Origin: a virus | Virus record (IMG/VR): IMGVR_UViG_3300045988_098562 | Span: 19,484-83,483 of that record | Reading direction: 5' to 3' (one strand) | DNA length: 64,000 nucleotides | Part shown: positions 13,180 to 13,934 of the stretch, piece after piece | Layout of the letters: each line of letters starts with the position of its first letter | Position numbering within the stretch: the stretch's first letter is position 1 | Notes under the pieces: generated by a model | What the model saw: only the letters and a program-made list of their open reading frames with translations | Databases searched by the model: none | Told to the model about the DNA's origin: nothing | Made by a program: the position numbers and the translations under genes

Positions 13180-13249
13180 AGATCCCACCTCTGGTTGTTT
13201 GATGTTGAAAGATATTTTTGGCTCATTAGGGTTTGTCATAGTGGGATCT
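13180..13249. repeat. inverted repeat AGATCCCAC / GTGGGATCT (9 bp arms, ~52-nt spacer) immediately upstream of the AT-rich T5orf172 gene
   Basis: Perfect 9-bp inverted arms read directly from sequence. Confidence 0.4.
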
Positions 13250-13280
13250 GACATTCTCTTTTGGGCCTATTTTTTTTATT

Positions 13281-13934
13281 ATGGATAATACTTGTATTCC
13301 TTTTGTGTTAATAAACGACAGAAAAATGATTGACGCAAAACATGTTCATAAATTGTTAGAATGTAAGTATGATTTTAAACATTGGATTAAGGATGTAATA
13401 TCATCTTTTAATTTTAAGGATGGAATAGATTATATATCATATAGATATGATAATAATGGAGAACAAATAATAGATAATAATAGTCATGTATTTAGGCATG
13501 ACTATTATTTATTCCCCAAATCGATTCTGTGTATCATCTATATGAAGTGTGATAGATCTTTATTTAAAGATTTTATTTATGATATATTTGATTGTTGTAA
13601 TATTAAAAATGACGATCGGGTATTAGATATAATACATAGATCTATCGATAGGTATAATAAAAAATGTATAAAATATTTTACATATATAATAAGAAATAAT
13701 AATAATGGTTTTTATAAAATAGGTAAAAGCTCTGATGTAAAAAGAAGGCTATCTGGGTTGTCTATTGTAGAAGATAACTTAACATTAATAGCTTATGTGA
13801 ATAAAGATATAGAGAGCGAGCTTCATGCAAGATTTGATATCAAAGGGATATACAGAGAATGGTTCAACTTATCAGATTGCGATTTGAATGATATAATTGA
13901 TAAATATAAATTCAAGTTGTGTGACATGGCTTGA
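13281..13934 (+). CDS. T5orf172 (GIY-YIG-like) domain protein, possible antirepressor/Bro-N-like N-terminus; candidate selfish/homing element
   Basis: C-terminal segment GFYKIGKSSDVKRRLSGL...LIAYVN...ELHARF...REWF matches the T5orf172/MUG113 signature (YKIG-T/S, RRL, E..LH..F, EWF); gene is far more AT-rich than neighbours. Confidence 0.65.
   Translation: MDNTCIPFVLINDRKMIDAKHVHKLLECKYDFKHWIKDVISSFNFKDGIDYISYRYDNNGEQIIDNNSHVFRHDYYLFPKSILCIIYMKCDRSLFKDFIYDIFDCCNIKNDDRVLDIIHRSIDRYNKKCIKYFTYIIRNNNNGFYKIGKSSDVKRRLSGLSIVEDNLTLIAYVNKDIESELHARFDIKGIYREWFNLSDCDLNDIIDKYKFKLCDMA

Follow-up and report, generated by a model that had tools for sequence, protein, structure and literature searches.

How a gene far richer in AT than its neighbours comes to lie among the large structural genes of a phage is the question raised by the open reading frame (ORF) at 13281..13934 of the stretch analysed here, 64,000 nucleotides (nt) of the viral record IMGVR_UViG_3300045988_098562, hereafter the window. 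The initial annotation, made from the letters of the DNA, had taken this gene for a selfish cassette of the T5orf172 type, recently acquired and bracketed by an inverted repeat. Its placement is as described: giant virion proteins are encoded on the + strand of the window and a replication module on the - strand, and the gene is preceded by virion genes of 2239 and 751 amino acids (aa) and followed by one of 2137 aa. The nearest annotated record is that of phage csAssE-Sib (OR575929.1; 151 kb, human gut), on which we found no paper in the literature. Comparison with relatives showed that the segment 13113-13998, which contains the gene, represents one of the alternative forms taken by a hypervariable accessory-gene slot in a lineage of ~150-kb human-gut phages.

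The cargo slot and its alleles

Relatives were fetched via the 335-aa protein encoded downstream of the gene; 561 were obtained in IMG/VR, and the best 80 were kept. The slot was typed as the interval between outer anchors, and its length and content were classified in 81 loci. Compared with alleles that hold a spacer only, homology stops at 13112 and restarts at 13999/14000. On its two sides the slot is flanked by a module of small ORF and hairpin and by the 335-aa virion-region gene, both conserved.

The content of the interval differs from one genome to the next. The spacer allele (E), 103-105 bp long with two small hairpins and no ORF, was found in 45 of the 80 relatives. Twenty-one carry a gene of antirepressor type, Bro-N+KilAC (ANT) (allele A), and 10 carry the AntA+T5orf172 gene (allele T), one copy being frameshifted; the gene is thus polymorphic for presence at this exact site, as a mobile origin had led the initial annotation to expect. 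Two others have a KilAC (ANT) domain behind an unknown N-domain (allele X), one has TnpB alone, and one TnpB plus Bro-N+ANT. When the typed IMG/VR contigs bearing the leader described below were counted, Bro-N+ANT was found in 45, AntA+T5orf172 in 10, X in 6 and another cargo in 1.

The limits between shared and allele-specific sequence are sharp. In csAssE-Sib the slot holds a different gene (294 aa, Bro-N + KilAC/ANT), and identity to the window is ~99% up to 13288, i.e. 8 bases into the ORF, and again from ~13993. The X allele departs from the window exactly at the ATG. Promoter and leader are common to the filled alleles, except for the TnpB-only locus L044, which has the promoter only and follows the window to ~13183. 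Across the leader-bearing alleles the cargo ORF starts at the same ATG, the terminator being different for each cargo, and the right recombination boundary lies within the U-tract of the hairpin downstream of the gene. Neither target-site duplication nor terminal repeats were found at the junctions 13112/13113 and 13998/13999. Simple insertion of a gene, as first supposed, does not describe this situation: the 'empty' allele has a 104-bp sequence of its own, and other alleles hold alternative genes. As a separate observation, the TnpB genes, which belong to an RNA-guided nuclease family (NF040570, 144.9 bits), fill the slot at 4518-5705 in L044 and at 3704-4651 in L036, and in L044 TnpB enters inside arm 1 of the leader helix.

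Cargo type is not linked to genomic background. The 751-aa gene upstream exists in at least two diverged forms, with either 97-100% or 67-79% nucleotide identity to the window, and every cargo class was found with both (split counts of 5/6 for T, 7/15 for A and 9/34 for E). Because cargo type and 751-aa allele are unlinked, recombination moves the cargo between genomes, and we conclude that cargos are exchanged through recombination in the conserved flanks. The T cargo is near-invariant in the sample: its nucleotide diversity (pi) is 0.0023, all differences being singletons, over backgrounds whose neighbouring gene differs by 20-33%. The corresponding values are 0.015 for the leader of the T cargo, 0.058 for the A cargo and 0.089 for the spacer, the most diverse allele class, whose two small hairpins are nevertheless conserved (fold z -3.1). 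The identity tracts around the T cargo stop at different points in different carriers.

Phage 'morons', a concept of Hendrix and Juhala, are autonomous accessory transcription units. At the sequence level, the slot resembles them: it is a self-contained transcription unit, with a promoter-like site, a terminator-like hairpin and an atypical composition (GC 25% vs 38%), located between genes that are adjacent in relatives, and absent from 45/80 of these. It is unlike morons in that the slot is reusable, with at least five alternative cargos under one conserved promoter and leader, and in that its 'empty' state has its own spacer. Iyer, Koonin & Aravind reportedly described in 2002 how Bro-N, KilA-N and AntA domains are shuffled with KilAC and T5orf172 in large DNA viruses and phages. 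Exactly that domain set is found here as alternative alleles; unlike in other domain-shuffled Bro-N/KilA-N proteins, the combinations occur as alleles of a single orthologous site, so that the shuffling is directly visible.

The locus is in this respect more useful than the gene. It offers a natural allelic series, in the form of hundreds of near-isogenic metagenomic genomes that differ in the cargo, promoter, leader, start codon and terminator position being the same. Such a series makes it testable whether a T5orf172 nuclease drives its own spread, whether Bro-N/KilA-N/AntA domains paired with KilAC or T5orf172 are functionally interchangeable, and what the conserved structured leader does. 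To our knowledge, translation and termination signals are poorly understood in the phylum Bacteroidetes.

Table 1. Location of the features discussed, in window coordinates (protein residues for domains).
Feature	Position	Strand	Remarks
Polymorphic cargo slot (promoter, leader, ORF, terminator)	13113..13998	+	from comparison with spacer alleles
Bacteroidetes-type promoter-like site	13128..13158	+	TTTG (13128-31), 19 nt, TAtcTTTG (13151-58)
Structured 5' leader	13160..13280	+	conserved; directly before ATG
P1 hairpin	13171-78/13194-13201	+	in leader
Inverted-repeat arm 1, AGATCCCAC	13180..13188	+	in P1 loop
P3 hairpin, long, imperfect	13220-25/13262-67, 13228-31/13256-59, 13234-37/13250-53	+	in leader
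Inverted-repeat arm 2, GTGGGATCT	13241..13249	+	in P3 apical loop; pairs with arm 1
U-run	13270-77	+	directly before ATG
Cargo gene, AntA/KilA-N-like + T5orf172	13281..13934	+	ORF of 217 aa
AntA/KilA-N-like DNA-binding domain (predicted)	~residues 1-125 of 217-aa protein		N-terminal part
T5orf172 GIY-YIG-fold nuclease domain (predicted)	~residues 131-210 of 217-aa protein		C-terminal part
Terminator-like hairpin, cargo-specific	13959..14003	+	11-bp perfect stem 13959-69/13984-94, then CUUAUUUUU
Candidate FopS/GibS-like small RNA	13041..13114	+	hairpin 13072-13107 and U-tract; left flank
Small ORF, 65 aa	12796..12993	+	left flank of slot; protein-level conservation in L082
751-aa gene adjoining slot	10316-12571	+	without family match
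AT-rich ORF, 179 aa	9750-10289	+	GC ~31%; third-lowest GC3 of window

The AntA+T5orf172 gene and its possible mode of spread

The low GC content noticed by the initial annotation was borne out by measurement. It is 25.1% in the gene and 38.0% in the window, and 13281..13934 is the minimum-GC 654-bp stretch of the whole 64 kb. Among the 37 window ORFs of at least 150 aa, the gene ranks lowest both in GC and in GC at third codon positions (GC3), which is 0.217 for a mean of 0.366 and a standard deviation of 0.063.

Profile searches recovered a domain in each half of the protein. Residues 17-62 match Pfam AntA (39.3 bits, cutoff 27), and the N-terminal domain has a winged-helix fold of the KilA-N/APSES-like type. 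The T5orf172 signature that had been read from the translation is confirmed by matches of residues 133-208 to Pfam T5orf172 (PF10544; 33.7 bits, cutoff 20) and MUG113 (PF13455; 35.0 bits, cutoff 22.3). The fold of this domain is predicted with high confidence and has the three-stranded sheet and flanking helices (beta-beta-alpha-beta-alpha...) of GIY-YIG proteins. In an alignment of 87 sequences, the invariant T5orf172 residues are Y135, K146, G148, R156, E178 and E193, the near-invariant ones T134, I147, L181, H182, W194 and F195, and the window protein has them all. It also contains the family motif (T)Y...YKIG...R...E..LH...EWF, and retains R156 and E193, the Arg and Glu with a catalytic role in GIY-YIG enzymes. 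An exhaustive profile search with the window protein matched 1468 cluster representatives at E <= 0.001, nearly all of them via the C-terminal domain, the full architecture being present in few. The PADLOC defence models, NCBIfam and PDB sequence searches gave no match for the 217-aa protein, and Foldseek against PDB no significant one. Judged by these profile and residue matches, the gene is an added member of the already known T5orf172 homing-endonuclease-like family. The family would thereby reach large phages of the human gut whose promoters are of the Bacteroidetes type, and gain AntA/KilA-N as a targeting domain.

Proteins that combine a DNA-binding domain at the N-terminus with T5orf172 at the C-terminus have been described as a putative phage homing-endonuclease family situated at boundaries of genetic exchange, and freestanding homing has been proposed for the T5orf172 genes of ICP1-like and T5-like phages (PMC10448857). 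In that data set (Barth, Dunham & Seed 2023), the DNA-binding domain is a CapR/DUF723-type zinc finger in 87% of cases (PMC10448857). Like these genes, and like the ICP1 T5orf172 nuclease Odn, the window gene is modular, with a C-terminal T5orf172 that has the conserved Arg and Glu behind an N-terminal DNA-binding domain. As with the ICP1-like and T5-like genes, it is free-standing between conserved virion-region genes, at a variable site with a sharp identity change. It is unlike the published set in that its DNA-binding domain is AntA/KilA-N-like and not a CapR/DUF723 zinc finger. It is also unlike the ICP1-like and T5-like genes in its setting, a ~150-kb gut phage with Bacteroidetes-type promoters, and in having promoter and leader in common with non-nuclease alternatives.

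A recent acquisition of the gene, which had been proposed, is contradicted by its age. Public protein clusters contain copies at 94, 93, 89 and 87% identity, plus one at 59%. The latter (P0021, locus L082) occupies the same syntenic slot in a relative that has diverged to 81-94% identity in the downstream proteins. Synonymous divergence (dS) is 0.24-0.7 inside the clade and saturated relative to L082. Since the L082 copy is equally AT-rich (GC 24.9%, vs 37-45% in its neighbours) and in the same slot, low GC is a stable property of this gene rather than the mark of a recent arrival, and caution is needed in general, as stable low GC in such a gene is not evidence for recent transfer. Between intact copies, the pairwise ratio of nonsynonymous to synonymous divergence (dN/dS) lies in the range 0.11-0.24; for the T5orf172 half alone it is 0.04-0.06. 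The AntA+T5orf172 gene is intact and under purifying selection.

Damaged copies also exist. Cluster P0013 (82 sequences) breaks off immediately behind KIGKS, as would result from a 1-nt insertion. In P0009, P0014 and L275 (3001-3934), deletions with one breakpoint inside the T5orf172 region have removed up to four downstream genes (335, 137, 162 and 125 aa), and the gene is fused to, or lies beside, genes located 1.2-2.9 kb downstream; the L275 deletion is supported by two contigs, each ~52 kb long. Rearrangements associated with the nuclease, defective genomes and artefacts of assembly are all conceivable explanations for these variants.

How, then, does the gene spread? With its polymorphic slot and its cargo exchange, a selfish and mobile behaviour is plausible, although the repeat boundary and the recency on which the initial annotation had built it both fail. 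We lean towards a reading of the homing type for the 217-aa protein. The protein would be a DNA endonuclease targeted by its AntA/KilA-N-like N-terminal domain. During co-infection, it would cut phage genomes that carry another slot allele, or a site beside the slot. Recombinational repair from the nuclease-bearing genome would then transfer a copy of the gene to the cut genome, along with flanks of variable length. The overall mode would be freestanding, 'intronless' homing, of the kind shown for the Seg enzymes of T4.

Several points weigh against homing. Cleavage, target site and biased inheritance are putative for this protein. The match to Pfam GIY-YIG itself (PF01541) stays below its cutoff (21.1 bits for 22.6) and covers residues 131-158 only. 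A second T5orf172 gene was not found in the 64-kb window, unlike in phages rich in homing endonuclease genes and unlike in the ICP1-like T5orf172 expansions: there is one copy in 64 kb. The gene-less allele, with its own ~104 bp (e.g. L002 5788-5884), is not a clean empty site. Non-nuclease cargos are as unlinked from the background as the T gene, so the unlinking is not specific to it, and, as the other slot alleles are not nucleases, recombination at the conserved flanks happens without this nuclease. Nuclease-specific co-conversion of the flanks was not seen: identity breaks sharply at the 3' end of the 751-aa gene whatever the cargo. Finally, the presence of the same gene in the same slot of the diverged L082 also fits long-term vertical retention.

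The main alternative is that of a domesticated accessory or conflict gene. The protein would then be a sequence-directed nuclease or a DNA-binding regulator, used against competitors (satellites, phages, prophages) or in host takeover, the slot polymorphism being kept by selection and the alleles moved by ordinary homologous recombination, with no homing. The non-insertion-sequence cargos of the slots, in the clade of the window and in the second clade described below, are either Bro-N/KilA-N/AntA proteins with KilAC or T5orf172, or parts of restriction-modification systems, and antirepressor-like and methylase cargos would stand in for, or complement, one another in conflict. Diverged lineages have these cargo classes in common, as in a trans-lineage polymorphism; purifying selection is strong; and the shared, conserved and structured leader suggests that the phage regulates the slot. 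There is also a precedent: Odn alternates with CRISPR-Cas at a variable ICP1 locus and destroys a satellite; for this one member of the family, cleavage was shown to be Glu-dependent, whereas homing by Odn is not established (PMC8263062). On the other side, PADLOC gave no match, and the frequent null or truncated copies suggest that the gene is dispensable. We regard this alternative as possible but rather doubtful; it and the homing-type reading are not mutually exclusive.

A decaying remnant, or a DNA-binding protein with an inactive, functionless nuclease domain, is very unlikely: many truncated, frameshifted and fused variants are indeed present in public data, and the sequence search gave no solved homologue, but neither the dN/dS of the T5orf172 half among intact copies, nor the conservation of all invariant family residues on a fold predicted with high confidence, is what decay would leave.

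The inverted repeat, the leader and a candidate small RNA

The perfect 9-bp inverted repeat that had been seen next to the gene exists, but it does not bracket it: both arms are 5' of the start codon, separated by 52 nt (Table 1). The occurrence of such a repeat is in itself unremarkable, as block shuffles of the window give an expectation of ~34 perfect inverted 9-mers within 100 nt, and of 2.3 for those equally GC-rich; it is because of conservation and covariation that this one is more than chance. The arms are ~99% identical in phages with other cargos, and they behave as an RNA helix and not as the boundary of a mobile unit. In L082 they read GCATCTCAC and GTGAGATGC, which amounts to three compensatory double changes.

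The arms belong to a leader that follows a promoter-like site. The latter conforms to the Bacteroides promoter consensus, TTTG-N19-21-TAnnTTTG, and is conserved in the A, X and T alleles and in the TnpB-only L044. Pairing in the leader was scored for P1, P3 and the helix formed between their loops, in an alignment of 15 distinct window-type leaders. In this alignment, 99.8% of the cells are paired, vs 40-52% with slid partners, only 1 of 464 cells being unpaired. Four pairs have changed on both sides, a number that none of 500 shuffles reached, and 13 vary on one side, this covariation resting mainly on one diverged lineage (L082) and on one-sided variants. For the loop-loop helix taken separately, the figures are 3 compensatory pairs, 5 one-sided variable pairs and 99.3% of cells paired. 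Several pairs are G.U, which makes the structure specific to the + strand. P3 folds with -21.2 kcal/mol (z -5.2), and since the U-run and the ATG come immediately after it, it resembles an intrinsic terminator or attenuator. Conservation is far higher in the leader than in the gene that follows, with ~1 substitution/121 nt where the dS of the adjacent coding sequence is 0.235.

The length of the U-run varies (7, 8 or 9) among otherwise near-identical genomes, with both cargo types. This variation accounts for the 'extended' gene calls of 243 and 320 aa in databases, as 7 T put the ATG at 13202 in frame. The 28-codon upstream ORF 13202-13288 that begins there was considered and rejected as coding. 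Its frame is shifted by the 7/8/9 variation of the poly-T, and in L082 a 1-nt indel cuts it to 8 codons while the nucleotide sequence is still conserved. Its stop matches the end of homology with the Bro-N allele, but with the X allele homology is lost already at the ATG.

Rfam 15 contains no covariance model matching the leader, of either type (see below for the second), even at E <= 5. Metagenome and genome scans for further diverged window-type leaders gave only chance matches, and no repeated copies of the leader are present within the window. From its structure and position, the leader most likely limits or times the expression of whichever cargo follows. We tentatively propose, as an idea that falls somewhat short of an even chance, that it acts in cis as a regulatory RNA, not described so far, in gut phages of Bacteroidetes, gating a swappable cargo (nuclease, antirepressor-like or other conflict genes), and that with the small RNA candidate described next it forms a small RNA-based control region.

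Arbiol et al. reportedly described in 2010 promoter-stem-loop cassettes (PeSLs) flanking variable ORFs in T4-type phages. The likeness to the slot is in the layout, a conserved regulatory sequence beside variable ORFs that may provide homology for recombination, and homology to PeSLs is not claimed. Nor is it claimed for P22 immI, which the slot resembles in placing an antirepressor-type gene under dedicated control by RNA or by a small regulator. Unlike both, the window leader is single-copy and has a covarying loop-loop helix, with no repeated copies in the window.

Stable hairpins with U-tracts are present on both sides of the gene, as the initial annotation had stated when it called them terminators, but the upstream one is part of a small RNA candidate. 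A simple terminator scanner called neither. The downstream hairpin has a fold of -17.7 kcal/mol (z -4.4). The upstream candidate folds with -25.7 kcal/mol (z -5.4), and is kept throughout the relatives, L082 included; in L002 its stem shows a compensatory change. Of the small RNA families known from Bacteroides, Rfam FopS (RF04319; described in PMC11697453) matches it over the whole model with 32.7 bits for a gathering threshold of 56 (E 0.0026 for 311 nt), and GibS (RF04182) with 23.5 bits for a threshold of 115. A run of 17 nt in it, GUUUUUCAUGGUAUUAG, is identical to the 5' end of the FopS consensus. Being sub-threshold, this likeness is a resemblance only, and the small RNA a candidate. 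Like the promoters, the FopS-like element points to Bacteroides as the host. Pairing of its seed with the leader and nearby start regions was no better than that of shuffled seeds. Together with the structured leader, this candidate is the less expected content of the locus.

We can now return to the cassette of the initial annotation, transposon-like or freshly inserted and bounded by the 9-bp repeat and the terminators: the gene is AT-rich, its presence/absence at one site, the repeat and the hairpins are real, but such a cassette is most improbable, given two arms that lie upstream of the gene, are kept in alleles without it and covary as a + strand RNA helix with G.U pairs, true junctions lacking both the duplication and the terminal repeats of a terminal-inverted-repeat transposon, and a gene as old as the 59% identity of L082 in the same slot and a clade dS of up to 0.7 imply.

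A second clade and the neighbouring genes

Further relatives, forming a second clade, were fetched with the downstream protein of L082. In most of these, the slot that varies adjoins the opposite side of the 745-751-aa gene. Found there as cargo were two T5orf172 genes (GC 27-28%, the N-terminus being different), Bro-N+ANT, KilA-N+ANT, X+ANT, TnpB, and a D12 methylase accompanied by a DpnII fragment; other slots hold no cargo. In L200 (234-1326), what follows the D12-class adenine methyltransferase is a piece (89 aa) of a DpnII-type restriction enzyme, which suggests a degraded restriction-modification unit. In both clades, TnpB was also observed in the second variable slot, the one across the 745-752-aa gene (in L272/L273 it precedes the 752-aa gene; other examples are L190, L209 and L222).

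The slot of the second clade has a leader of another sequence with the same layout: a promoter, a small hairpin, a second hairpin, and a 17-bp hairpin with a U-run before the ATG, the first and last loops being complementary. In 19 distinct leaders of this type, 98.0% of the cells pair, vs 36-56% when slid, and compensatory changes were found in 3 pairs of the long hairpin and 1 pair of the loop-loop helix. A covariance model built from these 19 leaders misses the window leader. The two types have the same topology, and homology between them is not claimed.

On the left flank of the window slot, the 65-aa ORF, with a counterpart at L001 7265-7489, gave only weak, sub-threshold Pfam matches. 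It lies directly upstream of the slot, which it may regulate. Its csAssE-Sib homologue is annotated as 'lactose operon repressor', and a 1-nt difference alters the C-terminus.

The 751-aa gene has strongly diverged alleles, with 67-79% nucleotide identity in close relatives and 50% aa identity to L082, in contrast to the 98-99% identity of the genes just downstream of the slot. A role in host range, or as a diversifying module of another kind, is possible for the 751-aa gene, which has variable slots on both sides. The 179-aa ORF that precedes the 751-aa gene, for which no Pfam or PHROG match was found, occupies the position used as variable slot in the second clade.

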